A stretch of DNA of 12,909 bases from a virus (IMGVR_UViG_2579779007_000005), one strand, 5' to 3'; shown: positions 1 through 12,909, counted from the stretch's first letter. Numbers and translations are program-made. The notes: a model not told the origin generated them from the sequence alone.

Positions 1-163
1 AGTTTGCTCCTGCCATAACGTGAAGAAGCAATGACCTGATGGTCTGTGACTTCCCTACGCTGGCATTATCCAGATCAGGTGATACGGGTATTTCTTACTA
101 ATTTTTGTTATCAGTTGATAATTAATAAGTTTTTAAGCATATAAGAATTAAAAACCTCAAAAA

Positions 164-230
164 TGACCACACAACTGACCACACATTTCGTTGAAGCCCT
201 ACGAACAACGACGAACAATAACAAACAAAA
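164..230. repeat. Tandem direct repeats near the left end: TGACCACACA x2 and 10-bp-phased ACGAACAA x2 with a degenerate third copy
   Basis: TGACCACACA at 164-173 and 176-185. ACGAACAA at 201-208 and 211-218, followed by the degenerate ACAAACAA at 221-228. Confidence 0.4.
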
Positions 231-616
231 GGGAAATTTGCTGGCAGTTTTGCTTAACCGTTATCATTTTTCGGCTATCCGCTATGAAGCTGGTGGATGA
301 TCACGGATAATCCGTTATGTGGATCCCCATATCGGCATCAGGCCCACCAGCGTGAAGCGTTTTTCATTTTTCGCGGGTATAAAAAATCGATGGGGCTGGC
401 AGTCCAGAAGACGTCAGGGTACAGAGATTTGACCCGCCCCTCCCTGTGCATAAGCACAATAAGTAACCGAAGGCGGAATTCCGCCCTCGGTACTCATATA
501 TGAGAAACGATATTTCTTCCACCGATACCCTTTATTTGGGTATCGCGAGTAAGCCCCAAAATCTGGGTGTTACTCTTACTACCCAAACTACGGGTAGTTT
601 CCGTAGTTTCATGGTC

Positions 617-636
617 GAGTTGCAGATCTGCAACTC
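617..636. repeat. Perfect 20-bp palindrome GAGTTGCAGATCTGCAACTC
   Basis: Exact dyad symmetry centred on AGATCT, in non-coding DNA, with no flanking T-run so not a typical terminator. Nearby hairpins: CGATACCC-tttattt-GGGTATCG (524-546) and AAACTAC/GTAGTTT repeats (585-609). Confidence 0.4.
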
Positions 637-775
637 ACCCACCAGCGCAAGCAGAGCCACTAAATGATACGATATGAAGTGATACAAATCAGTAAACCAC
701 TTCAATTTTAAAAGACGCTACTCAACACAGTAAAGCGCCTTTTATTATTGTTTATATGCTTTCGAAAACACAAAT

Positions 776-798
776 AAAAAGCACCAGTATGGTGCTTT
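776..798. terminator. Bidirectional rho-independent terminator downstream of the 822-1130 cargo gene
   Basis: Plus strand AAAAA-AGCACC-AGTAT-GGTGCT-TTTGTGCTTTT: 6-bp stem (780-785 / 791-796), with an A-run on one side and a T-run on the other. Confidence 0.55.
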
Positions 799-821: not shown

Positions 822-1130
822 CTAGTACTCAGGAAGATTTTCTAAATTATCCTTAGATGTACCATTGGCTCTAGTTGTAATGTAATCAATGTTGTTAACA
901 CGGTCTTTAACCACTTTTTGACCCTTCTTCCACTTACCGTCATCACCTATGAAAATGGTGTAAAACGTATAACCACTATCGATCTTATTCACTACCCACT
1001 GCCGTGTTTCTGATACCCCTCCCCCAACAGTATCCCCCTTATCAACATGCACATACACATGGGTAATGTGAGTGTGCTTGTCGTTATATCGGACTTTAGA
1101 AATAAGGTAATCAGCCCATTTATCAATCAT
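822..1130 (-). CDS. AT-rich cargo gene of unknown function (about 102 aa from ATG 1130; the ORF extends to a TTG at 1184, giving 120 aa)
   Basis: ORF immediately downstream of terL, with visibly lower GC than the packaging genes. The ATG at 1130 has a GGTGG SD-like sequence; the TTG at 1184 has AGGAAG at about 9 nt. Stop TAG 824-822 is followed by a terminator. No recognisable domain. Confidence 0.45.
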   Translation of the reverse strand: MIDKWADYLISKVRYNDKHTHITHVYVHVDKGDTVGGGVSETRQWVVNKIDSGYTFYTIFIGDDGKWKKGQKVVKDRVNNIDYITTRANGTSKDNLENLPEY

Positions 1131-1279: not shown

Positions 1280-2941
1280 TCAAATCCCATTAAATAAAGC
1301 CAACCGTTCTTTGTGGCTATCGCTCATATCGAATGCAAATTCCTCATGCTCTGCCTGGAATGTGCCAAACGCCATCAGCGCCGCAACGCTCGGGTCTATC
1401 TTGTTGGATGATTTTTTCTTGTTCGGCTTGATATTGGCGTTCGCGTCACTCTGCATCACAACATTACTCATTGACCAAGCCATCACCGGATCACCACGAT
1501 GTACAATCACCTTCCGGTTAACAAAAACTTCGAACGATTTCGCCGCCGGACTGAAACGAAGGTATGTTTGCGGGAACGGCTCCACCTCAAATCCTGCACC
1601 CTGTAGCTGCGTCCTCAAGTGCGTGGCGTTCCATGTATCGAAGCCCACCAGCCTGATATTGAAATTCTCTGCATCCACCATGATGTCATCACGGATACGG
1701 TCATAATCAATGCAGTCACCCGGTGTTGTGCGTATCCAGCCCGCCTTTACCCACTGGCGATAGATGGCGCGGTTTTTATTGGCGGGGTTCTGTAGCTGAA
1801 ATTCTGGTAGATAGTGACGGGAAACCAGCATAATCTTTTTACCGACCGGGAAGGCATAGCACACGCTGGAAATATCGCTGGTTGATGATAAGTCCAGCCC
1901 CGCGTAGCACTCCTGCCCGTATAAATCCGCCTCCGCGAACGTTCCGGCGCACTCCGCCCATGCACCGTTACCCATCCACGGCGTAGCCCCCTGACACCAG
2001 ATATTGAATCGCTTGGTGAGCATTTCCACCCACTGCGACGGAATACCCCGCGCTTTCTGGATGGTTGAGGCCAGTTTTTCACGATCTACGGAAACATCGA
2101 TATTGGGATTCGCCTTTATCCACATCGCCGGATCGTCAACCTCGCTTTCATCATCCAGCTCATAAATCAGAACGAACATGGATTCGTTCACCTCTTCACC
2201 ATCCAGTATCTGGCAGCAATAGTCGTAGTGTTGTTTACAGGCTGAAACAACGTTGCTCCCCGATGTGGTGATGGCAAATAACAGCCCCTCTGGGCGTGCC
2301 CCCATTCCCAGTTCAAGCGCGGAATAAACACCGTTGTCAGGGTGCAGGTGATATTCATCCACAATGGCAAGGCTCGGGTTTGTACCTTCAATGGTTGCCG
2401 CTTTTGCTGCCAGCGGCTTTAACAGGCTGTTGGTTTTCGGGTGTATCACCTTGTGTGCCTGAATATTTACCCGCTTTCGTAACGGTCGGGATAAAAGGCA
2501 CATCTGACGCGCATCATCAAACACGATCCGCGCCTGATCACGACTCACGGCGGCGGTGTAAATATCCTGCTGCCCGTTTTCCATAACCAGAAACCAGTTA
2601 GCCAGGATAGCGGCGACCGTGGATTTGGCATTTTTTCGCGGTACTTCAATGAATGCGCTGGTGTATTTGCGCCGTCCGGTGGCCTTAACCTTAAAGCCCA
2701 GGATGCACGCAAAGGCGAACTGCTGCCACGGCTCCAGCTCAATGGGGCTACCACGCATTGCGCCTTTTACGTGCGGACACACCCTGGAAAAGGCAATAAA
2801 CCGCTCAACGACCTCCGGATCGAACGTGTAAAGGGGGTTTTCAAGGTCAGAAAAATACCGTTTAACGGCCTGTTTCAGTCGTTTACAGGCCGTAATTTTG
2901 CCGTTTTTTACGCCTTCTGCGTACTCATGCCAGGCGGTCAA
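1280..2941 (-). CDS. terL: Terminase large subunit, HK97-like (553 aa), apparently TTG-initiated
   Basis: Conserved N-terminal region WHEYAEGVKNGKITACKRL, Walker-like VPRKNAKST, and a C-terminal nuclease-like region. The most upstream in-frame start is TTG 2941-2939, preceded by GAGGA SD at a 5-nt spacer. There is no in-frame ATG/GTG before residue 63. It overlaps terS by 17 nt. Confidence 0.9.
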   Translation of the reverse strand: MTAWHEYAEGVKNGKITACKRLKQAVKRYFSDLENPLYTFDPEVVERFIAFSRVCPHVKGAMRGSPIELEPWQQFAFACILGFKVKATGRRKYTSAFIEVPRKNAKSTVAAILANWFLVMENGQQDIYTAAVSRDQARIVFDDARQMCLLSRPLRKRVNIQAHKVIHPKTNSLLKPLAAKAATIEGTNPSLAIVDEYHLHPDNGVYSALELGMGARPEGLLFAITTSGSNVVSACKQHYDYCCQILDGEEVNESMFVLIYELDDESEVDDPAMWIKANPNIDVSVDREKLASTIQKARGIPSQWVEMLTKRFNIWCQGATPWMGNGAWAECAGTFAEADLYGQECYAGLDLSSTSDISSVCYAFPVGKKIMLVSRHYLPEFQLQNPANKNRAIYRQWVKAGWIRTTPGDCIDYDRIRDDIMVDAENFNIRLVGFDTWNATHLRTQLQGAGFEVEPFPQTYLRFSPAAKSFEVFVNRKVIVHRGDPVMAWSMSNVVMQSDANANIKPNKKKSSNKIDPSVAALMAFGTFQAEHEEFAFDMSDSHKERLALFNGI

Positions 2942-3281
2942 GCTCGTCCTCTTCCTCTGTTTCCGGTGGATTTCTGCGGCGGCTTACCGGGTCAAAACCC
3001 AGCAAAGAAGCCATTTTGATCATTATTCTTTCTGCGTCAGCCTTTGCGCTCAGTGCGGGGTTTCTGCTCTCGCTGCCCTGACTGTTAACAATGCTGAACC
3101 CGCGCGTCGCAAGGTCTTCGACGGCTTTGCGGTATATGGAGTAGTTAACACAATACAGTTCCAGATTGCTCCAGTCGGCGGGGGTAAGGTCTTCCCGCCC
3201 GGAAAGCTGGCGCGATTTTTCCTTCCACTGCCTGACCGCGATTTCATCCAGGTAAGCGGGGGCTTTTGGTGGTCTTGCCAT
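2925..3281 (-). CDS. terS: Terminase small subunit (118 aa)
   Basis: The start is taken as the internal ATG 3281-3279 (MARPPKAPAYLDEIAVRQWKE...) rather than the ATG at 3422, because the upstream 47 codons read like AT-rich intergenic DNA. P27-type TerS-like N-terminus and acidic C-terminal tail (ETEEEDELDRLA). Stop TGA 2927-2925 overlaps terL. Confidence 0.75.
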   Translation of the reverse strand: MARPPKAPAYLDEIAVRQWKEKSRQLSGREDLTPADWSNLELYCVNYSIYRKAVEDLATRGFSIVNSQGSESRNPALSAKADAERIMIKMASLLGFDPVSRRRNPPETEEEDELDRLA

Positions 3282-3332
3282 GTTCTTTTTTCGTCCAATT
3301 ATTTTCAAAAAAATTACTGTGCACAAAAATTT

Positions 3333-3392
3333 GAGGGGGCGGTCGGTGTCCGGCAGGGACGGTTTCGTCCTGAAAACCACCCCCACCCCCTC
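3333..3392. other. Candidate cos/packaging-site element in the HNH-terS intergenic region
   Basis: Inverted repeat GAGGGGGCGG (3333-3342) / CCACCCCCTC (3383-3392) with one mismatch, flanking the palindrome GGACGgtttCGTCC (3357-3370). It lies 50-110 bp upstream of terS inside a 288-bp non-coding gap (3282-3569). Confidence 0.3.
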
Positions 3393-3569
3393 TGACGGCC
3401 TCACCAGCGATTGCGAAAACATTCCATGACCTCGCGGTCACGGTCGGTTAATCGCTTCGCTGTGGTGCGTTTTGTGCGCCCTGTCCTGTTGGCTTTGTGC
3501 TCTGTCTCCTGTGTCTTCCATGTGTCACGCTGCCTTATCAGTCCACGTATCAGCCTGGTTTGCTCCTGT

Positions 3570-4010
3570 TCAGTCATCATCACCATACATCCAGTCGTTA
3601 CGGTGTGCCGCCCGTTCTTCCTGCTCGCGATACATGCCCGCTTTACGGTTTGCTTTCGTGGCTGGATCTTCCCATGTCGTCTTACGGTTGTGGCACGTCT
3701 GGCACAATGCCTGGTGATTCCACTCAGGCCAGAAGAGAACATCACCGCCGCCATTGATGGGAATGATGTGATCCACCACAAGAGCTGGTGTATAAATACC
3801 CTTAGCCAGACAACGCACGCATAACGGGTTTTTGCTCAGGTACAGGGCGCGGTATTTGTCCCACTGTCGGGAATACCCACGTGCGCGGCGGTGTCCCCGT
3901 CTGGCATCCTCTGCACGCCATGCAGCCCGCCTGTGCTCTTCACACTTGCCGGACTTCACGCGCTTATTACAGCCCGGCTCAGTGCATCGCCTTAATGGTT
4001 GCCACGGCAT
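3570..4010 (-). CDS. HNH endonuclease, terminase-associated (146 aa)
   Basis: HNH/zinc-finger motifs: CVRCL...DHIIP...N...H...CQTCHNRK and N-terminal CTEPGC...C. It lies directly upstream of terS-terL, as in HK97-like cos packaging modules. Confidence 0.85.
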   Translation of the reverse strand: MPWQPLRRCTEPGCNKRVKSGKCEEHRRAAWRAEDARRGHRRARGYSRQWDKYRALYLSKNPLCVRCLAKGIYTPALVVDHIIPINGGGDVLFWPEWNHQALCQTCHNRKTTWEDPATKANRKAGMYREQEERAAHRNDWMYGDDD

Positions 4011-4312
4011 CAGTACACCCCCACATCACGATAAACCGACCAGAGCGCAGAAATAGCCATAGGCAGTTCCGAGTGCTCAACTGGTGAAACCGCTTCCCGG
4101 TTCTCGTACAGAAAAGCGATGTACATCAGGCAACCAACACGTATTGCCGGGGTAAATTCCAGGCCGTCTTCAAAACGTTTCCCGATATGCTTCTGGCAGG
4201 CTTCCAGCGCCGCATCGGTATATATTTGCAGAAGTTCAACCTCACCATAAAAATCATCATCAAGGCGAAGATGGGCCATTACTTCATTAAGCGTAATTCT
4301 GGATTCACTCAT
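4010..4312 (-). CDS. gp6-like head-tail connector/adaptor protein (100 aa)
   Basis: ATG 4312-4310 (MSESRITLNEVMAHLRLDDD...) overlaps the portal stop by 8 nt; its TGA overlaps the HNH ATG (TGATG). Size and position match phage gp6-like connectors. Confidence 0.65.
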   Translation of the reverse strand: MSESRITLNEVMAHLRLDDDFYGEVELLQIYTDAALEACQKHIGKRFEDGLEFTPAIRVGCLMYIAFLYENREAVSPVEHSELPMAISALWSVYRDVGVY

Positions 4313-5519
4313 CTTTTTCACCTTTAATTTCCACAGTCTGCTTCCATGCCTGGCTGAACTCGTCACCCCCTTCACGCGGCGGCATACCCTCACGCTCACG
4401 GGCTTCGTTCGGATTCATGATCCCGTTCTTAATCCCTTTCTCATACGTGGCATAACGTTCGGTGGGTGTGGCGCGTAATAAATCGGCTGAATCAAACTCA
4501 ACCAGATAACGGGTACCAGGTACGGGAGAAGCCACCAGCAAAGCGGCCTTGATTTGCTGTTCGAAGTTCGCCAGCCATGGGCGCATTGTCATGGTCAGAA
4601 ACGCGCGGCTTGCCTCGCTGAAATTGCTGTAGGTGCTGTTGCTGTATTCCTGCAGAAAAATAGGCGATACGTTGAACATGCGGGCGATGTCTTCAATGGA
4701 GAAGCGACGGGAGGCCAGCCATTCCGCATCCTGGTTACTCATTCCCAGTTGCTTGTAATCCATGCCCCCTTCAAGGATTGGCGTTTTTCCGGCATTTTTC
4801 GCCCCCTTGTAGCGTTCCAGAGCATCTAATGCCTGTTTACCTTTCACGCCGTCCAGCCATTCGCCTGACGTGATAATCCCTGCCGCCATCATGCCATCTT
4901 TCATAATGCTGGCTCCGTGGCGCTGTTGAGCAAGGCCAAGCCCAAGTGCCTCACGGCAAATCGTGACGGGGGAGCGCCCCAGAAAGCCATCATCCGAGGC
5001 ATAGCGGAGATGCAGAACTTCTTCCTGTAAATACGTGCGCACCGTTCCTGTATAGGGTTCGGTGATGGTATATCGGTATTTGTGTGCGCCTGTGCGTTCC
5101 GGTACAACACACCCCGGCGCATAAGGATGAAGTGATTTTGGCTGCCCGTCCCGCCCCCACTCAATAACCGCATAGGCGTTACCGTTCAGCAGGCAGTGAC
5201 GCATCATTGTGCGTTTAAACTGGTAAGGTGTCTGGCATGAATTAGGCTGCTCATTCAGCAGAATATCTACCGGGTGACTGTCCAGCCATTCCCGCGCCTC
5301 TCTGCCCTTGTCATTACGTACCAGATACAGATAACACGGCATCGTGGCCACCGCCTCAGCGATGACAGAAACCGCGTTCATCACTGCAGGCAATGATTCA
5401 GCCGTCCCGGCAGAAACATATTCTCCGGATCCGGTATTCGGTACGCCGGACAGCGCCAGAAAATCATCAATGGACAGGTTACGCTGCTCGCTTTTTTTAC
5501 GACTAAAAGGCCACCACAT
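4305..5519 (-). CDS. HK97-family portal protein (404 aa)
   Basis: ATG 5519-5517 is tightly coupled to the protease stop; the TTG at 5609 listed in the track is rejected. Size and position fit a portal. The stop overlaps the connector ATG. Confidence 0.8.
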   Translation of the reverse strand: MWWPFSRKKSEQRNLSIDDFLALSGVPNTGSGEYVSAGTAESLPAVMNAVSVIAEAVATMPCYLYLVRNDKGREAREWLDSHPVDILLNEQPNSCQTPYQFKRTMMRHCLLNGNAYAVIEWGRDGQPKSLHPYAPGCVVPERTGAHKYRYTITEPYTGTVRTYLQEEVLHLRYASDDGFLGRSPVTICREALGLGLAQQRHGASIMKDGMMAAGIITSGEWLDGVKGKQALDALERYKGAKNAGKTPILEGGMDYKQLGMSNQDAEWLASRRFSIEDIARMFNVSPIFLQEYSNSTYSNFSEASRAFLTMTMRPWLANFEQQIKAALLVASPVPGTRYLVEFDSADLLRATPTERYATYEKGIKNGIMNPNEAREREGMPPREGGDEFSQAWKQTVEIKGEKDE

Positions 5520-5520
5520 A

Positions 5521-6081
5521 TCACAACCCCGCCAGGTCAGCCCAGCGATGACGATTATTTCCTGCCGGGCGTAATTCAGGGTGCAGTGCAAACAACGAAC
5601 GGTGGGCAATCTCCACGCCGGATTCGGGATAAGCAGGCATTGACGTTATCGTGATTTCACGGAGTTCTGCAGCGGTAACAGTGCGCAGATACGGTTTTTG
5701 CGCGATATTCCACTCCTCGCATAATGCGCGAAAGCCAAAGCTCATTCCTGTAATGTCGCCACGCTCCACCAGCGTAAGCACATCTTTTCCAAGCTGGGTA
5801 TTTGGCGGTGTCAGTTCAAAACGTAACCCGGTGTTATCCTCAGTCAATACCAGAGTGCCGGATTTGGTGCGCCCCAGCAGTTGGGTATAGTCATGCTCAT
5901 ACAGGCAGCGCACATCATTACCCGCCACCAGATAGTCAGCAAAAGCCCCCGGCGTGAACTGTTCGCGGAATTCGTCCCAGATAATTTCTGAAAGGCTGTT
6001 CCAGCGAACGGCATATCCCACCAGCTTTTTATTGCTGGCGGTCAGTTCAGATGTGCGGATTTCAAAATCGGTGTTTTTCAT
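5521..6081 (-). CDS. HK97-family prohead maturation protease (186 aa)
   Basis: ATG 6081-6079 with AGGGGA SD. The N-terminal pattern ...KLVGYAVRWNSLSEI... resembles HK97 gp4-type proteases. It sits between the capsid and portal genes; its stop (5523-5521) is 1 nt from the portal ATG. Confidence 0.8.
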   Translation of the reverse strand: MKNTDFEIRTSELTASNKKLVGYAVRWNSLSEIIWDEFREQFTPGAFADYLVAGNDVRCLYEHDYTQLLGRTKSGTLVLTEDNTGLRFELTPPNTQLGKDVLTLVERGDITGMSFGFRALCEEWNIAQKPYLRTVTAAELREITITSMPAYPESGVEIAHRSLFALHPELRPAGNNRHRWADLAGL

Positions 6082-6098
6082 CGGTGTATCCCCTGAAG

Positions 6099-6124
6099 CT
6101 AAAAAAGGAGGCCGAAGCCTCCTT
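6099..6124 (-). terminator. Intrinsic terminator with a UUCG tetraloop immediately after the capsid gene, upstream of the protease
   Basis: Minus-strand RNA reads UAA-UGAGC-AAGGAGGC-UUCG-GCCUCCUU-UUUU: an 8-bp stem (plus 6105-6112 / 6117-6124), tetraloop, then a U-run (plus A-run 6101-6106). It lies 19 nt before the protease ATG. Confidence 0.55.
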
Positions 6125-6129
6125 GCTCA

Positions 6130-7275
6130 TTACTCACCAGCCTGAATTTCCAGAATCTTGATGGCGTTCGAATCCACCACACCACCGCCCAGATATTTCT
6201 GGGTATAGATGTTAATGAATCCGGGTTCGCTGAAGTCCGGACGGGTACGCGTACCGGTTTCATGGTCAACGATGAAATAACCGCGCTTAAAGTCACCTAC
6301 TGCAATCACACCGTCCGGAATAAATTCCAGATATTCAACCGGAAGCCCCAGCAGAGAATCAGGATCACCAGCCTGTAAACGATCGCGCCAGATGTAATCA
6401 CCAGTGGCATTTTTCAGTTTTTGTGCGGAGGCGGCTGTATTTGAGTTCATCACCCATACAGCTTTTTTGCGGTACTTATTGCGCAGCGTAAATTTCAGGT
6501 CAATCAGCATGTCGGCGCTGAGACTGCCAGTAACTTTTTTCGTCTGGAGCGTACCGAAAGGACGGGTTTTGTCGTTATCCGCAGTGCGCGGGAACGCCAG
6601 GAAACCTTTAGCTTTTTTCTCGCCATCACCGGAAACCAGATCCGTTTCTTCGGTATCAACGAAAGTGTCGCCAATTTCAGAAGATAACCAGCTCATAATA
6701 TCGACTTCGGAAAAATCGATAATTTCCTGAGTGGTTTTCGGGTAAGCGTAGATCGGATACAGGCGGATGCTGACTTCGTTCAGTTTCGGCGTTGCCGTCT
6801 GGTTACGTGCCGCACCTTCCTCGCCATGCTCAACCACCGCGCCACCAGCGGAAACCAGTTGCTTAAATTCATTGCTGTGAATGGTTTTAACAGTACAGAT
6901 TTTACGCATCACCGATTCATCAGAAAGCTGACGCATAATTTCTCTGTTCAGTTCCGGGATAACCGTATAACCACCATCAGCCGGGACACTGCCGGACAGG
7001 TTGCGGGTTTCCCCGGTCAGAATGTAAGAGCGCAGTTCGTCTTTGGTGATTTTCTCTTCGACGGAAACACCTGGCTGGTTACGTTCTTCATCCGCAACAG
7101 CTTCAAGACGGGAGATTTCTGTGTCGAGGGAATCGGCTTTTGCACGCAGTTCATCAAACTGTTTGCCCTCGTCATCGTTCAGGCTGCGGTTTTCACTGTC
7201 GGCTTTTTCCAGCAGGGAGCGCATCTGGTTTTTCAGGGCGTTTTTTTGCTGGCGGAGTTCGATTAATTTCTTCAT
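6130..7275 (-). CDS. HK97-fold major capsid protein with an N-terminal coiled-coil delta (scaffold) domain; 381 aa
   Basis: The N-terminus MKKLIELRQQKNALKNQMRSLLEKA...ISRLEAVADEERN is a typical helical delta domain, followed by an HK97-like body. ATG at 7275 is chosen over the in-frame TTG 7362 and ATG 7350 on homology-type grounds; the start is uncertain. Stop TAA 6132-6130. Confidence 0.85.
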   Translation of the reverse strand: MKKLIELRQQKNALKNQMRSLLEKADSENRSLNDDEGKQFDELRAKADSLDTEISRLEAVADEERNQPGVSVEEKITKDELRSYILTGETRNLSGSVPADGGYTVIPELNREIMRQLSDESVMRKICTVKTIHSNEFKQLVSAGGAVVEHGEEGAARNQTATPKLNEVSIRLYPIYAYPKTTQEIIDFSEVDIMSWLSSEIGDTFVDTEETDLVSGDGEKKAKGFLAFPRTADNDKTRPFGTLQTKKVTGSLSADMLIDLKFTLRNKYRKKAVWVMNSNTAASAQKLKNATGDYIWRDRLQAGDPDSLLGLPVEYLEFIPDGVIAVGDFKRGYFIVDHETGTRTRPDFSEPGFINIYTQKYLGGGVVDSNAIKILEIQAGE

Positions 7276-7465
7276 GAAGGTTTTCTCGTATTGGTTAAGA
7301 TTCAGGACGTGAAACCAACACGGAGGGAGCGCGCCCGACACTCCCGGCATCTCGCAGATCAACCCAGCATCGCGCAGGGGTCAGGCGGCATTGTGGCGGC
7401 TCACGTCTGAGTGCCACGCTCCAACATATACATAAAAATCAGTATGTAAACACCTGTCAGTCAGA

Positions 7466-7493
7466 CCGAACAACCACGAAAGAACACGAACAA
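7466..7493. promoter_or_regulatory. Three 10-bp-phased direct repeats (CCGAACAA / CACGAAAG / CACGAACAA) between the divergent capsid and cargo promoters
   Basis: CGAACAA at 7467-7473, CGAAAGA at 7477-7483 and CGAACAA at 7487-7493, spaced one helical turn apart. The same ACGAACAA motif recurs in tandem at 201-218. Confidence 0.35.
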
Positions 7494-7497
7494 ATAA

Positions 7498-7528
7498 TTT
7501 ACAAAAGAAGTAAACCATGGCCTATTAT
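7498..7528 (+). promoter_or_regulatory. Candidate sigma70 promoter of the 168-aa cargo gene
   Basis: -35 TTTACA (7498-7503), 19-bp spacer, -10 TATTAT (7523-7528). The spacer is long, so this is tentative. Confidence 0.3.
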
Positions 7529-7559
7529 TGCTGTCTCTGACTACAACAAAGGACGCATC

Positions 7560-8066
7560 ATGAATTTAAGCGCAATGGCATACCCTGATACTTTCATAAT
7601 TAATGGCGAATCATTCAGAGGTAAAAGAAACGCAAAAGAAAACAAGGTATTAATTCCATATACAAATGAACCGGAAGTAACTATTGGTCAACACATTATC
7701 CAGCGTGTCGGTAAAAACGAGATAAATCTAAAAATTATAGATATGAAGTTGCTTCCCAATGGAACCCTCAGACAGGGAACCAACCATCCAAATATGTTGA
7801 CTCTCTATATTGAAAATATCACGGGAAATGAACATATGACGCCAACTAAAAGTAATACATTTAACATTGGTTCAATTAGTGGTGATCAAGTGCAGATAGG
7901 TGAGCATAACCATATGCTGGTAAACATCAGCATCACTGAACTGGTTGAAAAAGTCGCTAAATCGGGGGATGTACAAGCCAAATCAGTATTAAAGCAGTTA
8001 CTGGAAAACAGTACCGTTGCCAGCATTGTTGGGGCTGGCGCAAGTGCCCTAATAGGCTTACTGTAA
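7560..8066 (+). CDS. AT-rich cargo gene of unknown function (168 aa) with a C-terminal hydrophobic Gly/Ala-rich tail; candidate accessory or defence-type effector
   Basis: ATG 7560 with AAGGA SD at a 6-nt spacer. It is the only substantial plus-strand gene in the island and is visibly more AT-rich than its neighbours. The C-terminus STVASIVGAGASALIGLL looks like a glycine-zipper membrane segment. It is bounded by its own promoter region and a terminator. Confidence 0.7.
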   Translation: MNLSAMAYPDTFIINGESFRGKRNAKENKVLIPYTNEPEVTIGQHIIQRVGKNEINLKIIDMKLLPNGTLRQGTNHPNMLTLYIENITGNEHMTPTKSNTFNIGSISGDQVQIGEHNHMLVNISITELVEKVAKSGDVQAKSVLKQLLENSTVASIVGAGASALIGLL

Positions 8067-8072
8067 AAAAAT

Positions 8073-8093
8073 GGCCTGGATTTTACCAGGCCT
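8073..8093. terminator. Bidirectional rho-independent terminator between the convergent 82-aa gene and the 168-aa cargo gene
   Basis: Stem GGCCTGG (8073-8079), loop ATTTTAC, stem CCAGGCC (8087-8093), flanked by AAAAAAA upstream and TTTATTATTTT downstream on the plus strand. Confidence 0.55.
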
Positions 8094-8101
8094 TTATTAT
8101 T

Positions 8102-8350
8102 TTACCGTTTCACGGGATCGCGCATTCTGCGCCTTATTTTCCACAGATATTCGATCATTGCTTCCACCTGCTCACGGTTGGTTGCGAAAATTTCCCCGGT
8201 CAGTGAGCTACGCAGAAAATCATGATGATCCACAAAAAACAACGCATCGGAAGAAAGCAGACGGCGATATTTTTTTGCTGTCATGGTTTCCAGATCATCA
8301 AAATCATGAAACTTTTTATGTTGCTGGACTTCTTCAAATGTCACTGGCAT
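8102..8350 (-). CDS. Hypothetical protein (82 aa)
   Basis: ATG 8350-8348 preceded by a G-rich SD (minus strand CAGGGGGGGG); stop at 8102, followed by a hairpin terminator at 8073-8093. Confidence 0.5.
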   Translation of the reverse strand: MPVTFEEVQQHKKFHDFDDLETMTAKKYRRLLSSDALFFVDHHDFLRSSLTGEIFATNREQVEAMIEYLWKIRRRMRDPVKR

Positions 8351-8367
8351 GCCCCCCCCTGTTGTCG

Positions 8368-8793
8368 CTAAAACGGTATGTTGTCCCCGTACGGATCATC
8401 GTGCTGACCCGTCTGCTGTTTTGCCCTGTTCAGTGCGTCAGTCGCCTGGTTCTGCTGGCCTTTTTTGCCGCCTGGTCGCACCGTTCGCGCACTGATTACG
8501 CTGTCTGCGATAACCTGCCAGCCTTGCCGAGTTTCGCCGTTCTGGCCTGTCCACTGACTTACCTGCATGTTACCCGCCACGCTCACCAGTTCGCCTTTGT
8601 GGTGTTTTGCCAGTGCTTCGGCCTGTCTGCCAAACGCCAGAACAGAAAGCCACATCGTCACCGCACCATCATCAGCCTGACTGCATGGCAGGGGTACTGC
8701 CATACTTACCATCGCCATTTGTGTACCCTTGCTGGTGGTCTTTAACTGCGGGTCATTTGCCAGCCGCCCGTAAGCGGCTATCTGTGCTGTCAT
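8368..8793 (-). CDS. ssb: Single-stranded DNA-binding protein (SSB)-like, 141 aa
   Basis: ATG 8793-8791 with GGAGGG SD. OB-fold-like N-terminal segment (IAAYGRLANDPQL...WLSVLAFGRQAEALAKHHKGELVSVAGNMQVSQWTGQNGETRQGWQVIAD), a Gly/Gln-rich linker, and a C-terminal ...DDPYGDNIPF resembling the SSB acidic DDDIPF tip. Confidence 0.65.
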   Translation of the reverse strand: MTAQIAAYGRLANDPQLKTTSKGTQMAMVSMAVPLPCSQADDGAVTMWLSVLAFGRQAEALAKHHKGELVSVAGNMQVSQWTGQNGETRQGWQVIADSVISARTVRPGGKKGQQNQATDALNRAKQQTGQHDDPYGDNIPF

Positions 8794-9035
8794 GATTCCA
8801 TCCCTCCGGTGTTAACGTTGATGGTTGTCACCTGTTCCGCTTCGGCAATCTCCCGCTCTGTCAACGTGGCAAAATTTGCCGCCGCCGTGGTCATTAATGC
8901 GCTTATCAGTTCGGGATGTGCTTTCGCGTATCCTTCCCCGGCGTTGCGGTCGATGATTTTTATCGACACCCTTAACCAGTGTTCCGTCAAATCAAGAGCG
9001 TGCGATTGTGATTTTTTTGTGTGCTTCGCTGTCAT
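8790..9035 (-). CDS. Hypothetical protein (81 aa)
   Basis: ATG 9035-9033; its stop overlaps the SSB-like ATG (8793) in an ATGA arrangement, implying translational coupling. Confidence 0.5.
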   Translation of the reverse strand: MTAKHTKKSQSHALDLTEHWLRVSIKIIDRNAGEGYAKAHPELISALMTTAAANFATLTEREIAEAEQVTTINVNTGGMES

Positions 9036-9080
9036 AGGCTTTATCTCACAGCAGTAAATTAAAATTTTTGCGTTTTAACC

Positions 9081-9310
9081 CTTCACCTGTTCACCTTTTG
9101 ATATTTTCTCTTTTAATTCATAATGTTAATTGGTGAACAGTTTCACAAAAACTATTCACCAACTGTTCACCACTGTTCACCCTTGAAGCTCAATAAACAA
9201 TCAAAAAGGTGAACAGTGAATAGTTTGGTGAACAGTTCATAAATAACTGTTCACCCTATAATATACTGATATAAAAGATATTTATGACAGGGTGAACAGT
9301 GGTGAACAGT
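9081..9310. repeat. Iteron array, candidate origin of replication
   Basis: Nine perfect copies of the 9-mer GGTGAACAG or its complement CTGTTCACC: plus-strand CTGTTCACC at 9087, 9163, 9173 and 9247; GGTGAACAG at 9132, 9208, 9227, 9291 and 9301. Degenerate copies at 9081, 9152 and 9217. AT-rich spacers (for example 9256-9290) separate them. The array sits directly downstream of the primase/helicase stop. Confidence 0.6.
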
Positions 9311-9322
9311 TATTCCATAAGT

Positions 9323-11140
9323 TTAATTTTTGCTATCGTCATTAGTGACCGATACACATGATGGCATCCAGTCTTCTGATTCCTCCGTCAGTGTCACGTT
9401 TGAACGCAAACCGTGCTTCGTTTTCCGTTTCATATACTCCCTGCCATATTCCGCCATTGCCCCCGGCATATCTTTACCGAAGCGCGTCAGTGTTACAGGT
9501 TTACCAAACCCATGTGCCCTCATATAAGCCAGATAGGCATGATAGAGATACCTGCGTGGGCTGAATGGCACAATTTCAGCATTACCCACTAACAGGCCAT
9601 CACACATTACCGACGCCATGAGATAGCCGCAGAAGTCCACCAGCGAATCCCCCTCTCGCTTTATCGCCAGTGCTTCTTCAGATTTCTGCTGCTCATATAA
9701 CAGGCGTCTGGCTTCGTCCTGGTTAGCAAACCGTGTAAGCAGATGGCGAATCACTACCGCCAGCTCACCTTCTATTTTTTCCGCCAGCATTGGATCACGT
9801 TCGTTCTCCGGTACAACTTCCGAAAAATTGAATATCACCCGACGACGTGAGATCCCCCCGCTGCGGTCACTGAATGACATGGCGTTATTGTTAACCGCCA
9901 GCACTACTGCCGGAATACGCGTTGAGTAGGGGGCTTTGTGTTTCGGGTCAATTGCCACCTTGTCACCGCCTGTAATAGCCTTAATCCCTGCCCCATCACC
10001 AGCGTAGCGGGTCATATCCGGCATGATAATCAGCGAAAAGCCAACCACTAACGCGCGTTCCCTTGCATCTTCCAGCGCCTTCATGCTTGCCGATACTGTG
10101 TTGGCCTTACCCGCCAGCATGGTGCAAATCTCCGCCATCACGCTTTTACCACTTCCCCCTGGACCTGTTACCTCAATGAATAACTGCCAGTCGTACCGGT
10201 TCGCCAGCACCATGAATAATGCAGCCAGTACGCGATCCGCCTTGCGGTCATTCTCAGCCACCGAACGGCGTAACCACTTCCAGAAATTCGGCGCATGTGT
10301 TGCCAGCGTTTCCCCCTCTGCTGGTGGGCTGAAAGGTAATTCACTGGCAATTAACAACCAGTCGTTTTTGTTATGCTCCCGAAAATTACCTGTTCTGGTA
10401 TCAAATACCCCGTTACTGAATCCAATCAGGTTACGGGCTGTATTCCCCATTACAGGCAAACTTAACTTCATGGTATCGACCGCCGATTTAATGGCGTTCT
10501 GCGAATAGCTGATCTCCGCATCAATGAAAATCTGTGCCATAGCTCGCTGTAATTCTTTATCCTGTACTGGCTCCCATACAACGCCGTTGTAATGGTGAAC
10601 AGTGTCAGAGTCAGCATGAATCGCCAGTTCACCGCCATAATGTGCCAGGAGAACTTCGCCGCGTTGACTTGCTCCCATCTGGTTAAGCGCCAGTGATGAA
10701 GCGTTATCGTCTTTTACCCGCTCTTTTTTCTTTACAGGCAGTTCAACTACCTTTTTCTTTTCCGCCTGCTCTGCCCGTTCACGTTCCAGATATTCGCGCC
10801 AGTTCTCCCGTTTCTGGCTGTGCATTCCTTCAGGGTAATAATCAGCATCCCTGACACCTGCCACTGCCAGTTTCTGCCCGATGGTATTAACAAGCCCCGG
10901 ACGCAATAACCCCGCCTGATAGAGACGCACGCGATAGCGTCCGTCCGGTACGATTTGCAGGTTGTCCAGTTCGGCAAGTTGTTGCTCTCCAAGCCAGACA
11001 GGTGGCACGTTATCGCCAGCCAGTCGCCCGTCCTGTTCCTGCCACTGTTTCGCATGTGCCCACGCATCACTACCCGCAAAAATGATGACTTCCGTCATTT
11101 TGTCACGCGGCTGGTGTTTTAAATTTGGCGCTTTTTTCAT
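9323..11140 (-). CDS. P4-family primase/helicase-type replication protein (D5-like NTPase C-terminal domain); 605 aa
   Basis: Walker A GPGGSGKS and a Walker B-like LVVGFSLIIMPD are typical of the phage/plasmid primase P4-family C-terminal domain. The ATG at 11140 has a GGAGAG SD and ATGA coupling to the upstream gene, and is preferred over the GTG at 11155 listed in the ORF track. An iteron array lies immediately 3' of the gene. Confidence 0.85.
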   Translation of the reverse strand: MKKAPNLKHQPRDKMTEVIIFAGSDAWAHAKQWQEQDGRLAGDNVPPVWLGEQQLAELDNLQIVPDGRYRVRLYQAGLLRPGLVNTIGQKLAVAGVRDADYYPEGMHSQKRENWREYLERERAEQAEKKKVVELPVKKKERVKDDNASSLALNQMGASQRGEVLLAHYGGELAIHADSDTVHHYNGVVWEPVQDKELQRAMAQIFIDAEISYSQNAIKSAVDTMKLSLPVMGNTARNLIGFSNGVFDTRTGNFREHNKNDWLLIASELPFSPPAEGETLATHAPNFWKWLRRSVAENDRKADRVLAALFMVLANRYDWQLFIEVTGPGGSGKSVMAEICTMLAGKANTVSASMKALEDARERALVVGFSLIIMPDMTRYAGDGAGIKAITGGDKVAIDPKHKAPYSTRIPAVVLAVNNNAMSFSDRSGGISRRRVIFNFSEVVPENERDPMLAEKIEGELAVVIRHLLTRFANQDEARRLLYEQQKSEEALAIKREGDSLVDFCGYLMASVMCDGLLVGNAEIVPFSPRRYLYHAYLAYMRAHGFGKPVTLTRFGKDMPGAMAEYGREYMKRKTKHGLRSNVTLTEESEDWMPSCVSVTNDDSKN

Positions 11141-11436
11141 TTCTGCTCTCTCCACGCGGCAATCATGTTTTTCAGTTCCTGTAGTTTTTTATCAACATCC
11201 ATACATGACACATGGTTATTTCTGGAAAGCGGGATTTCCCGCCTGAATCTGCTAATAAAGATCTCCACGTTCAGCGAACTATGAAATGAATAGCCATCAC
11301 GAATAAAATACACACGGTCAAACATCAGTTCTTTTACCGTTACTCTGTTACCGTTCTTATCCAGATAAATAGCGCCGGGGATAATTTTGGGGTGTGCATA
11401 ACCGCTGGCAGTCAAGCCAGATAAATATGTTCTCAT
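11137..11436 (-). CDS. Hypothetical protein (99 aa)
   Basis: ATG 11436-11434 lies 6 bp after the upstream stop, with a GGGGA SD-like sequence. Its TGA (11139-11137) overlaps the primase ATG (11140-11138) in an ATGA arrangement. Confidence 0.55.
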   Translation of the reverse strand: MRTYLSGLTASGYAHPKIIPGAIYLDKNGNRVTVKELMFDRVYFIRDGYSFHSSLNVEIFISRFRREIPLSRNNHVSCMDVDKKLQELKNMIAAWREQK

Positions 11437-11442
11437 GATTAT

Positions 11443-11763
11443 TTATCCCCGATTTGAATCAGTATTCGCTTTCTTTATGGCATTTAATGCATCTGTGGCA
11501 TTTTCAATGGTGCACCGTAACGAAATATCAAACTGCCCAAGCATTGCCAGTAACAAACCGATATTACCCATATCAATGCGCATAGCCTTTTCGTCATAGT
11601 CCTCATTTTCTGACGCATGCCACATCAGGCTACCAATTGACGCAATACCCATTGATATATTGTCAGTAGCCCCATCCGCAGCGGAATAAACCTTTTTAGC
11701 AATATCATGCTCACAGTTAAAATGCGGATTAATCAGGTACTGGTAATTTGACATATCAGGCAT
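11443..11763 (-). CDS. Hypothetical protein (106 aa)
   Basis: ATG at 11763 overlaps the stop of the upstream 67-aa gene (translational coupling); stop TAA 11445-11443. No recognisable motif. Confidence 0.55.
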   Translation of the reverse strand: MPDMSNYQYLINPHFNCEHDIAKKVYSAADGATDNISMGIASIGSLMWHASENEDYDEKAMRIDMGNIGLLLAMLGQFDISLRCTIENATDALNAIKKANTDSNRG

Positions 11764-11959
11764 GGCACACCCCCTGACGAATACGGGCGGCGAATACCAT
11801 CACGCAGCCAGCCGGGGATTGCTGGCGTGCTTCCTGTTCGCTGGTGGCCACGATGTGAATCACGCGCGGTTGTGCGGTGCTCAGGGCGATAAAACGCCAG
11901 ATGTATTTATTCAGGTCGTGCGAGTCCCGCCCTTGCGGGTGTGTGGTATGATTTCTCAT
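11756..11959 (-). CDS. Hypothetical small protein (67 aa), first gene of the minus-strand early operon; faintly reminiscent of Icd-like small proteins found near primases in P4-like islands (unverified)
   Basis: ATG 11959-11957 preceded by GAGGT SD; stop TGA 11758-11756 overlaps the ATG of the next gene at 11763. This is the only credible part of the 306-aa track ORF 11756..12676. Confidence 0.45.
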   Translation of the reverse strand: MRNHTTHPQGRDSHDLNKYIWRFIALSTAQPRVIHIVATSEQEARQQSPAGCVMVFAARIRQGVCHA

Positions 11960-12055
11960 AGCTACCTCGATACGCTTTCTATCGTTGGTGGTTAGAAGCC
12001 CGGTTAGTGTTAGCGCACTGCCGGGTTTCGTCGTTTCTGCACCTTGCATCAACAA

Positions 12056-12108
12056 GGTGTTAAACACCAATTTAAGCCTAGGTGTTAAACACGTCAAGTG
12101 TTGAACAC
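12056..12108. promoter_or_regulatory. Three near-palindromic operator sites (GTGTT-N-AACAC) in the divergent intergenic region
   Basis: GTGTTAAACAC at 12057-12067, GTGTTAAACAC at 12082-12092 and GTGTTGAACAC at 12098-12108. The third overlaps the candidate -35 of the RHH promoter. Confidence 0.5.
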
Positions 12109-12129
12109 TTATTTTTTTTCCTGCATACT
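12101..12129 (+). promoter_or_regulatory. Candidate sigma70 promoter of the RHH gene
   Basis: -35 TTGAAC (12101-12106), 17-bp spacer, -10 CATACT (12124-12129); lies about 30 bp upstream of the ATG at 12159. Confidence 0.3.
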
Positions 12130-12158
12130 GCATTTGTTTTTTGTAAGGGGTACACAAC

Positions 12159-12338
12159 ATGGCGACAAAAGCAGTAAACGCAAAATCACAAACAGTTGCG
12201 GCAAGGGTTCCGCATGAAGTTATGAACAATGTTGAGGCGGTAAAAATGCCTGGTGAAAGTACAGGGCAGTTTGTAACAGCAGCATTAAAGCGAGAAGTTG
12301 AATACCGCCAGCGTCGCAAGGCCAAAGAGCAGGAGTAA
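12159..12338 (+). CDS. Small ribbon-helix-helix (Arc/CopG/MetJ-type) DNA-binding protein, putative repressor; 59 aa, below the ORF-track cutoff
   Basis: ATG at 12159 is preceded by SD AAGGGG (8-nt spacer) and an in-frame TAA at 12144-12146; stop TAA 12336-12338. The sequence TVAARVPHEVMNNVEAVKMPGESTGQFVTAALKREVEY fits the RHH pattern (beta-strand with R-V-P, helix A, G-x-S/T turn, helix B). Three palindromic operators lie directly upstream. Confidence 0.5.
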   Translation: MATKAVNAKSQTVAARVPHEVMNNVEAVKMPGESTGQFVTAALKREVEYRQRRKAKEQE

Positions 12339-12395
12339 CCATCACCAGCGCCGTGGTGCGGTGAACTGTGGCGCACAGGGTTACAGGTATCTACG

Positions 12396-12575
12396 ATGAC
12401 TGACAAATCATTAAAGAAATTATCCTCATCCAAGAAAAAACAACGCAAAAATGCGGTAAACGAACATGAACCGGAGAGATTCGCACCATGTGCGTTTATC
12501 CTTGAGAAGTACCTTAAAGAGTATTCTAGGAAAATACGCTCATTGCAGGCATGGCAGCGAATCGAGCCAGACTGA
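12396..12575 (+). CDS. Hypothetical small basic protein (59 aa), possibly co-transcribed with the RHH gene
   Basis: ATG at 12396 with only a weak AGG SD; stop TGA 12573-12575. It lies between the RHH gene and a plus-strand terminator at 12640-12667. Lys/Ser-rich N-terminus; no recognisable domain. Confidence 0.25.
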   Translation: MTDKSLKKLSSSKKKQRKNAVNEHEPERFAPCAFILEKYLKEYSRKIRSLQAWQRIEPD

Positions 12576-12639
12576 TAGCATTGCCCACCAGCCAACAACC
12601 TGGTATTCTGGATATGCTCAAGTTTAGTGTTATGCCACT

Positions 12640-12667
12640 GGCGACCGCCCTTGGTCGCCTTTGTTTT
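12640..12667 (+). terminator. Rho-independent terminator for the plus-strand RHH transcript
   Basis: Stem GGCGACC (12640-12646), loop GCCCTT, stem GGTCGCC (12653-12659), followed by TTTGTTTT. The minus strand has no T-run after the same hairpin, so it is probably unidirectional. Confidence 0.5.
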
Positions 12668-12684
12668 ATGTGTCATAGCCCCCC

Positions 12685-12909
12685 CTACGCTGCCTTACCT
12701 GAATTAACGCGGTCACGGCTTTGCACCCAGTCCATAACTTCGGAAAGCAACCAGCCTACAGAACGCCCCCCAAGATTACGGCGAGACGGAAAGCCCCCTT
12801 TCTTCTCCAGTTCGTAGCGTGTAGTACGGCTGACGCCTGTTAACTTACGACATTCATCCTCACGAATTACGCGATCTGTTAGTGATTGAAATTGTGTATT
12901 TTGATTCAT
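12685..12909 (-). CDS. alpA: AlpA-family (Xis-like winged-helix) transcriptional regulator; its ATG is the last 3 bases of the window, so the N-terminus could extend beyond the edge
   Basis: 74-aa ORF ending at TAG 12685-12687. The segment LTGVSRTTRYELEKKGGFP...GGRSVGWLLSEVMDWV matches the HTH plus Trp-containing wing pattern of prophage AlpA/Xis-like regulators. It sits at the head of the replication genes, as in PICI-type islands. Confidence 0.7.
   Translation of the reverse strand: MNQNTQFQSLTDRVIREDECRKLTGVSRTTRYELEKKGGFPSRRNLGGRSVGWLLSEVMDWVQSRDRVNSGKAA

Follow-up and report, generated by a model that had tools for sequence, protein, structure and literature searches.

A stretch of viral DNA of 12,909 nucleotides (IMGVR_UViG_2579779007_000005), referred to below as the window, was found to hold the greater part of a capsid-forming phage-inducible chromosomal island (cf-PICI) that has integrated and belongs to the Escherichia/Klebsiella clade, an assignment to which we give a probability of about 0.93. 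A preliminary description of this DNA had favoured, over a prophage, a satellite that makes its own capsids and relies on a helper phage for tails only, and the identification as a cf-PICI is borne out by a closely related island in E. coli A41, the match of the capsid protein to PDB 9GYI, the synteny with EcCIEDL933 and KpCIDSM30104, and the intact state of the head genes. The island is a member of a published family and not a new kind of element, both the family and its gene order having been published in 2022–2025. As an individual island it is an ordinary member, and the side observations made on it amount to modest leads and fall short of discoveries; what has been obtained is an accurate annotation, of value for cataloguing. 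The family matters because cf-PICIs spread DNA between species via their own capsids attached to the tails of other phages.

The long open reading frames (ORFs) of the window lie almost all on the minus strand, and all of the modules named in the preliminary description were matched in profile searches (Pfam, NCBIfam and also PHROG), with strong matches throughout the head proteins. The packaging operon opens with the HK97-fold major capsid protein (6130–7275, minus strand; PF05065, 6e-60; TIGR01554), which matches PDB 9GYI with an E-value of 1e-185 and an identity of about 75–80%; this entry is the T=4 capsid of EcCIEDL933 (He et al., 10.1101/2025.02.11.637232). It is followed, on the same strand, by the S78 prohead serine protease (5521–6081; PF04586, 2e-45), the portal (4305–5519; PF04860, 6e-93), and a gp6-like head-tail adaptor, Ad1, which is the sole neck gene (4010–4312; PF05135, 7e-5; phrog_40, 8e-30; TIGR01560). 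Then come an HNH endonuclease, a packaging cofactor of HK97-type cos systems (3570–4010; PF01844), a 61-residue protein (3401–3586; phrog_3173), TerS of the P27 family (2925–3281; PF05119, 4e-23) and TerL (1280–2941; nuclease 4e-52, ATPase 4e-26). The 61-residue protein is 77% identical to its EcCIEDL933 homologue and, judging from gene numbering, is probably gene '1792' of that island, mutation of which severely reduced transfer in the EcCIEDL933 genetics.

None of the eight genes for head and packaging proteins is truncated, and their ratios of nonsynonymous to synonymous substitution (dN/dS), 0.02–0.26 against four relatives, indicate purifying selection (0.02–0.10 for the portal, 0.07–0.10 for TerL and ~0.2 for Ad1). 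The head genes are therefore not decaying, and the capsid, protease, portal, gp6 connector, HNH, TerS and TerL genes are present, intact and co-directional as the preliminary description had stated. What it called a complete head set does contain all the genes it named, but lacks the head-closure gene Hc1 of the prototype island. The nearest TerL proteins in the phage collection belong to satellites or satellite-like records, with 70–83% identity (two small Pasteurella elements stand at 70%), whereas those of true phages reach at most 37%.

The genes of the island run in the order capsid, protease, portal, Ad1, HNH, small ORF, terS and terL. HK97 begins with terS and terL, continues with portal, protease, capsid, Ad1 and Hc1 and then the tail genes, and has HNH beside cos at its extreme right end. 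The two share an HK97-fold capsid, an S78 protease, a portal, a gp6 adaptor, a TerS/TerL pair and an HNH gene near cos; HK97 differs in having tail genes and another gene order, and the island is without tail, lysis and immunity genes. The suggestion that the order mirrors that of HK97 is correct for the capsid-protease-portal trio, which is reversed; the HNH-(cos)-terS-terL unit is retained as on the circular phage map, with terS before terL and HNH beside terS, and Ad1 follows the portal. The capsid-first, co-directional arrangement, although present as described, is not peculiar to the window, since it is identical in all 57 related loci of the cf-PICI clade that contain both portal and HNH, including the two experimentally studied cf-PICIs, and it also appears in published maps.

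Between the gene for the 61-residue protein and terS lies a conserved non-coding segment of 119 bp (3282–3400, minus strand), which conservation and synteny point to as the candidate cos and TerS recognition site. Its mean column identity across islands is 84%, even against one whose synonymous sites are saturated, which exceeds the conservation of neighbouring synonymous sites, and it includes the invariant blocks GGGGTGGGGG..GTTTTCAGGAC and CCTCAAATTTTT. HK97 has a like arrangement of HNH, genome ends and terS, and the database record taken to be KpCIDSM30104 (see below) had been opened within the equivalent segment. The IMG/VR contigs examined are all in the integrated arrangement.

The other half of the island carries the regulation and replication genes, of which the AlpA regulator, the P4-type primase/helicase and the iteron origin had been recognised correctly at the outset. 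The alpA gene (12685–12909, minus strand; PF05930, 5e-16) starts at the right edge, the window ending at its start codon. The primase/replicative helicase of the P4 alpha/D5 family (9323–11140, minus strand) matches D5_N, DUF5906 and Pox_D5, together with the TIGR01613 'P4 family' model in its C-terminal part, a match (E=3e-27) that falls under the curated cut-off of that model. Directly downstream of the primase gene is an AT-rich predicted replication origin (9086–9310) with 10 copies of GGTGAACAGT in both orientations; with one mismatch allowed, there are 12 occurrences of the motif over the whole window, where 0.75 would be expected by chance. This position matches that of published PICI origins, which are placed downstream of pri-rep (PMC6092414). 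The head genes had been described as lying directly downstream of this module; the module is indeed upstream of them, but an SSB gene (8368–8793, minus strand; PF00436, 1e-16), small genes and a cargo gene on the opposite strand intervene.

The extent of the element was established by means of E. coli A41, in which a region is 97.8% identical to the window across 96% of its length. In A41, a DUF6387 gene and a tyrosine integrase gene lie beyond alpA, and the whole island, located between thiM and rcnR, is ~14.6 kb long. A comparison of island-free K-12, the integrase end of the A41 island and the left end of the window mapped the att core to a 14-bp direct repeat, ATACGGGTATTTCT, at 82–95 in the window (attR in the prophage convention), with a second copy at the A41 integrase end (L001 22712–22725) and a single copy in K-12. 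The integrase and the flanking att repeats, which the preliminary description had proposed to look for outside the window, were thus seen by proxy in A41. The window contains neither a tRNA nor a tmRNA gene, which excludes a tRNA as the att site. The element was originally taken to span 1280–12909; all of the head, packaging and replication genes do lie within this span, but the true left limit is at about position 96 and the element runs past the right edge of the window. The whole island in the genome of the window is estimated at ~15.2 kb, a net 555 bp more than in A41, because a 579-bp segment (7507–8085) replaces 24 bp of A41. This size fits a small capsid (~15 kb) and is close to that of EcCIEDL933 (15.4–15.5 kb).

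Gene content agrees with the cf-PICI class on both the positive and the negative side. The window encodes an AlpA regulator, a primase-replicase with an adjacent origin, its own capsid, protease and portal, and its own HNH, TerS and TerL; of the integrase with its specific att site, the att core is in the window and the integrase outside it, as seen in A41. No tail or holin/lysis genes were found in the window by ORF calls, Pfam and PHROG scans, and the full A41 island is likewise free of tail, lysis and lambdoid regulatory genes from one att repeat to the other. 3′ of terL there are only a DUF3892 gene, a terminator, a non-coding spacer and the att core, which agrees with the original observation of a small AT-rich cargo gene in place of tail, lysis or lambdoid genes. 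Ten of the 11 core components of the SatelliteFinder cfPICI model are present, only Hc1 being absent; SatelliteFinder accepts such elements as 'Type B', and the missing Hc1 does not bar membership of the class.

The prototype cf-PICI, from E. coli O157:H7, is EcCIEDL933 (Alqurainy et al., 10.1101/2022.09.08.507074; He et al., 10.1101/2025.02.11.637232). Its architecture is that of the window, and in both the gene order is alpA, icd-like, DUF4222, primase, ssb, capsid, protease, portal, Ad1, HNH, small ORF, terS, terL and cargo genes. In tblastn comparisons, an O157:H7 island of EcCIEDL933 type, which has no tail or lysis genes, shows synteny with the window over the whole stretch between alpA and terL; the identities are 93% for TerL, 89% for TerS, 85% for HNH, 81% for the portal, 75% for the capsid, 60% for the protease and 58% for Ad1. 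The two islands differ in att site (phoQ-roxA (ycfD) in EcCIEDL933, the thiM riboswitch in the window), in primase (DUF927 type and D5/P4 type, respectively), in cargo genes, and in that EcCIEDL933 has Hc1 between portal and Ad1 whereas the window has none.

KpCIDSM30104, a relative of which is EcCIGN02175, has the same packaging order as the window, with TerL 82% and Ad1 63% identical, but differs in its Hc1 ('gp9'), a large cargo gene of 765 residues after terL, a different integrase and a Klebsiella host. The record 'Escherichia phage vB_KppS-Ant' (LR881103.1; 16.5 kb) matches part of the K. pneumoniae DSM 30104 genome at above 99% identity and appears from its gene content to be a cf-PICI, which we take to be KpCIDSM30104. 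It was deposited as a phage, and its own paper calls it a filamentous single-stranded DNA phage; the tape-measure annotation of its 765-residue gene after terL is probably wrong.

In contrast to these two islands, EcCI224 of E. coli Ecol_224 (Fillol-Salom et al. 2018, PMC6092414) is a classical PICI, 10.6 kb long, in which a protease/capsid fusion and a DUF1441 gene replace the cf packaging module. It shares with the window the att core (AGAAATACCCGTAT) and the location between thiM and rcnR, and its DNA is 98.3% identical over window positions 1–645 and 98.9% identical over 9014–12060, from the origin to the icd-like gene. The left half of the island (int, alpA, rep and ori) is near-identical to that of a classical PICI, while the right half is a cf packaging module, unlike the capsid-redirecting right half of EcCI224. 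This agrees with published accounts, in which a packaging module derived from HK97 has been added to the left half of a PICI.

Related capsid-protease-portal blocks are present in 534 of 5426 complete E. coli genomes, 51 of them at 95–99% identity, and in dozens more IMG/VR entries. SatelliteFinder reported 969 cfPICI, found in 13% of Enterobacteriaceae genomes.

The packaging module has a mosaic make-up. Compared with the E. coli 042 island, its portal shows 99.5% identity and its capsid just ~69%, whereas the capsid of A41 is ~99% identical to that of the window; this pattern points to recombination inside the packaging operon. In a single-protein scan of genome contigs, the sole close relative came from Rosenbergiella sp. 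YN46 (Erwiniaceae), a genome with a capsid protein 90% identical to that of the window, which is consistent with a capsid lineage spreading between genera.

The published experiments concern the homologues EcCIEDL933 and KpCIDSM30104. In EcCIEDL933, induction requires alpA (10.1101/2022.09.08.507074); in the cf-PICIs studied, each packaging gene is required for transfer of the island and not of the helper, helper tail genes are required, the capsids are T=4 and 47.5 nm, and packaging is from cos ends. By analogy with such experimentally characterised homologues, a life cycle can be proposed for the island, each step of which is modelled on them. The alpA gene would be activated by a helper phage, and the tyrosine integrase encoded just outside the window would excise the island, which would replicate from the iteron origin via its own primase/helicase and SSB. 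A single rightward operon would yield the HK97-fold capsid protein, protease and portal, and these would assemble into small (T=4) procapsids. HNH, TerS and TerL would cut at cos, probably within 3282–3400, and package only island DNA; finally, the gp6-type adaptor would cap the portal and helper tails would be added to give infectious particles.

Several points weigh against this reading. The assignment to the cf-PICIs is known here from sequence alone, it is in the close relative A41, outside the window, that an integrase and the other copy of att are observed, and 3282–3400 is only the most likely cos and TerS site, its exact cut position being deduced from conservation and synteny. In addition, Hc1 is absent although both studied cf-PICIs carry it, so that the proposal that the island takes only tails from its helper may not hold exactly.

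Could the window instead represent a decayed HK97-like prophage, which has lost its tail, lysis and regulatory genes and retains a non-functional head remnant? The HK97-type head and packaging genes and the missing neck gene would both be expected on this view, yet the eight packaging genes are full length and under the purifying selection described above, hundreds of genomes carry the same compact, att-bounded architecture, the half for replication and regulation is of PICI type and not lambdoid, the TerL identity to the nearest true phages does not exceed 37%, and the gene order is unlike that of HK97. The contiguous tail, lysis and immunity modules expected of a temperate HK97-like prophage were found neither in the window nor in the A41 island. 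We therefore regard this alternative as very improbable. Still less probable is a classical PICI or P4-like satellite that remodels helper capsids rather than building its own: the near-identity of the int, alpA, primase and ori half to EcCI224, the common att site and the P4 family of the primase would fit it, but the element itself has genes for a capsid, a protease, a portal, an adaptor, HNH and TerL, and no homologues of P4 psu, delta or sid were present among the ORFs scanned.

A different matter is whether the island, as a functional cf-PICI, depends more on its helper than the prototype does, needing the Hc1 stopper of the helper in addition to the tail, or using a type of tail that requires no Hc1. 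This is a sub-variant of the cf-PICI explanation and not an alternative to it. Portal and Ad1 are directly adjacent (junction 4305–4312) with no Hc1 between them, unlike in EcCIEDL933 (L003 8630–8968) and KpCIDSM30104 (L069 15296–15637). Hc1 was not found by tblastn, nor by a profile hidden Markov model (HMM) run over every frame of both the window and the complete A41 island; the best E-value was 1.5, compared with 3e-46 in positive controls. It is absent in 39 of the 57 related loci. The Ad1 proteins of the Hc1-less loci form a separate allele group that is at least 86% identical to that of the window and never occurs with Hc1, whereas Ad1 alleles with at most 66% identity are almost always accompanied by it; islands with 99%-identical portal and TerL occur in both states. 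From such comparisons the neck looks like a swappable cassette.

In published work, which tails are compatible depends on the adaptor and connector proteins (He et al., 10.1101/2025.02.11.637232, among others), and the Hc1-less islands may therefore need Hc1 of the helper as well, or use other tails; the dN/dS of ~0.2 indicates that Ad1 itself is maintained. On the other side, the basis of this proposal is purely genomic, Hc1-less islands have already been catalogued as SatelliteFinder 'Type B', and Ad1 might suffice alone. We consider the extra dependence possible, though on balance doubtful. If true, the Hc1-less neck would alter both what these satellites take from a helper and the range of helpers open to them. 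No discussion of the Hc1-less state was found in the cf-PICI literature searched, and the sub-lineage may be a new point, though it is covered by 'Type B'.

The location of the att site deserves separate mention. The host flank outside the island (1–95, minus strand) holds the 3′ two-thirds of the thiM thiamine pyrophosphate (TPP) riboswitch aptamer and its expression platform (Rfam TPP), the thiM start codon being just left of the window. The att core falls within this aptamer and splits it: P1-5′, P2-5′, P3 and part of the CUGAGA motif are displaced by ~15 kb and now lie beside the integrase together with the native upstream region. The Rfam score of the aptamer is 34.3 bits in the window against 71.2 bits for the intact K-12 aptamer, with a gathering score of 54.3; over the whole window there is no Rfam match at the gathering threshold, and at an E-value threshold only the broken TPP aptamer appears. 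The same junction occurs in 76 of 5426 complete E. coli genomes. ATACGGGTATTTCT is the reverse complement of the att core of EcCI224, which is listed as 'frmR-thiM' (PMC6092414 Table S1); that paper lists the thiM att site and makes no mention of the riboswitch, and a literature search for thiM combined with PICI or integrase found nothing relevant. An att site inside the thiM TPP riboswitch may thus be a new point. If true, the insertion would release thiMD from control by thiamine in ~1.4% of the complete genomes of E. coli.

Taken jointly, the proposition that an adaptor-only cf-PICI sub-lineage is widespread, taking head closure and tail from the helper or docking another class of tail, and that, separately, insertion at thiM uncouples thiMD from thiamine feedback, is one that we put forward as speculative and rather unlikely to be right in full. 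Testable questions arise from these observations. Does the adaptor-only neck alter helper or tail dependence? Does insertion into the riboswitch affect the regulation of thiamine salvage and biosynthesis? What is the role of the cargo gene for a 168-residue protein?

The latter gene (7560–8066, plus strand; 37% GC) lies on the opposite strand before the capsid gene, within the 579-bp insertion relative to A41. Variable cargo hotspots flank the packaging operon of cf-PICIs, before and after, and the pre-capsid one is expected to hold immune systems (He et al., 10.1101/2025.02.11.637232). The 168-residue protein matches phrog_5789 only, with no match in Pfam, NCBIfam or PADLOC, and is one of a conserved family, 115 proteins in size, that extends over the Gammaproteobacteria; a Pseudomonas homologue lies in the cargo region of a P2-like prophage, where it adjoins a HEPN-like gene. 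Its structure model predicts helices at the C-terminus, preceded by an N-terminal β-barrel with a weak resemblance to the stopper proteins of phages; a comparison of the protein with the Hc1 profile was null. The presence of this opposite-strand gene in the pre-capsid hotspot may be a new point. The hotspot after terL holds the DUF3892 gene (822–1130, minus strand; ~38% GC; PF13031, 2e-9; phrog_32719), whose annotation is also carried by its counterparts in A41 and TUM9754. The DUF3892 protein has no PDB sequence match and no PADLOC match, and PADLOC gave zero matches for the small and cargo proteins of the island as a whole.

An intrinsic terminator, a stem-loop with a T run (778–798, minus strand), closes the packaging operon and the DUF3892 gene. 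It is followed by a structured non-coding spacer (330–780, minus strand) that forms a chain of near-perfect hairpins, with a minimum free energy of −171.5 kcal/mol against −122.6 kcal/mol for shuffled sequences (z=−8.3) and no Rfam family match. Segments 317–405 and 519–646 recur in other islands, sometimes duplicated. The lambda/PICI-type cosN (GGGCGGCGACCT, at most 2 mismatches) is absent from the window, so the spacer in common with the classical PICI is not a lambda-type cos. Nearer the att core is an arm-type repeat (155–228) with tandem TGACCACACA at 164–185, an 87–93% identical copy of which is present next to int in A41 and EcCI224; it is probably an integrase arm-binding site of attP. 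In the circular form, this 76-bp direct repeat (window 155–228; L001 22555–22630) flanks the att core on both sides.

The remaining genes of the replication half are small. Next to ssb are a conserved hypothetical gene for 82 residues (8102–8350, minus strand; phrog_1957; 45% identical to the EDL933-type gene) and one for 81 residues (8790–9035, minus strand; phrog_1231; 69% identical to its EDL933-type counterpart). Upstream of the primase, the minus strand carries genes for a DUF4222 protein (11137–11436; PF13973), a hypothetical protein of 106 residues (11443–11763; phrog_15327) and an Icd-like protein (11756–11959; NF033153 and the A41 annotation), and a divergent plus-strand gene encodes a small protein of the YlcI/YnfO family (12159–12338; NF041551). 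A minus-strand ORF of 306 residues (11756–12676) runs in frame from a part that resembles a hypothetical 247-residue gene of EDL933 type into the Icd-like gene, and overlaps the YlcI/YnfO-family gene in antisense. As a gene, this ORF is probably an artefact over conserved DNA except for its Icd-like C-terminal part, while the plus-strand ylcI/ynfO gene appears to be real.

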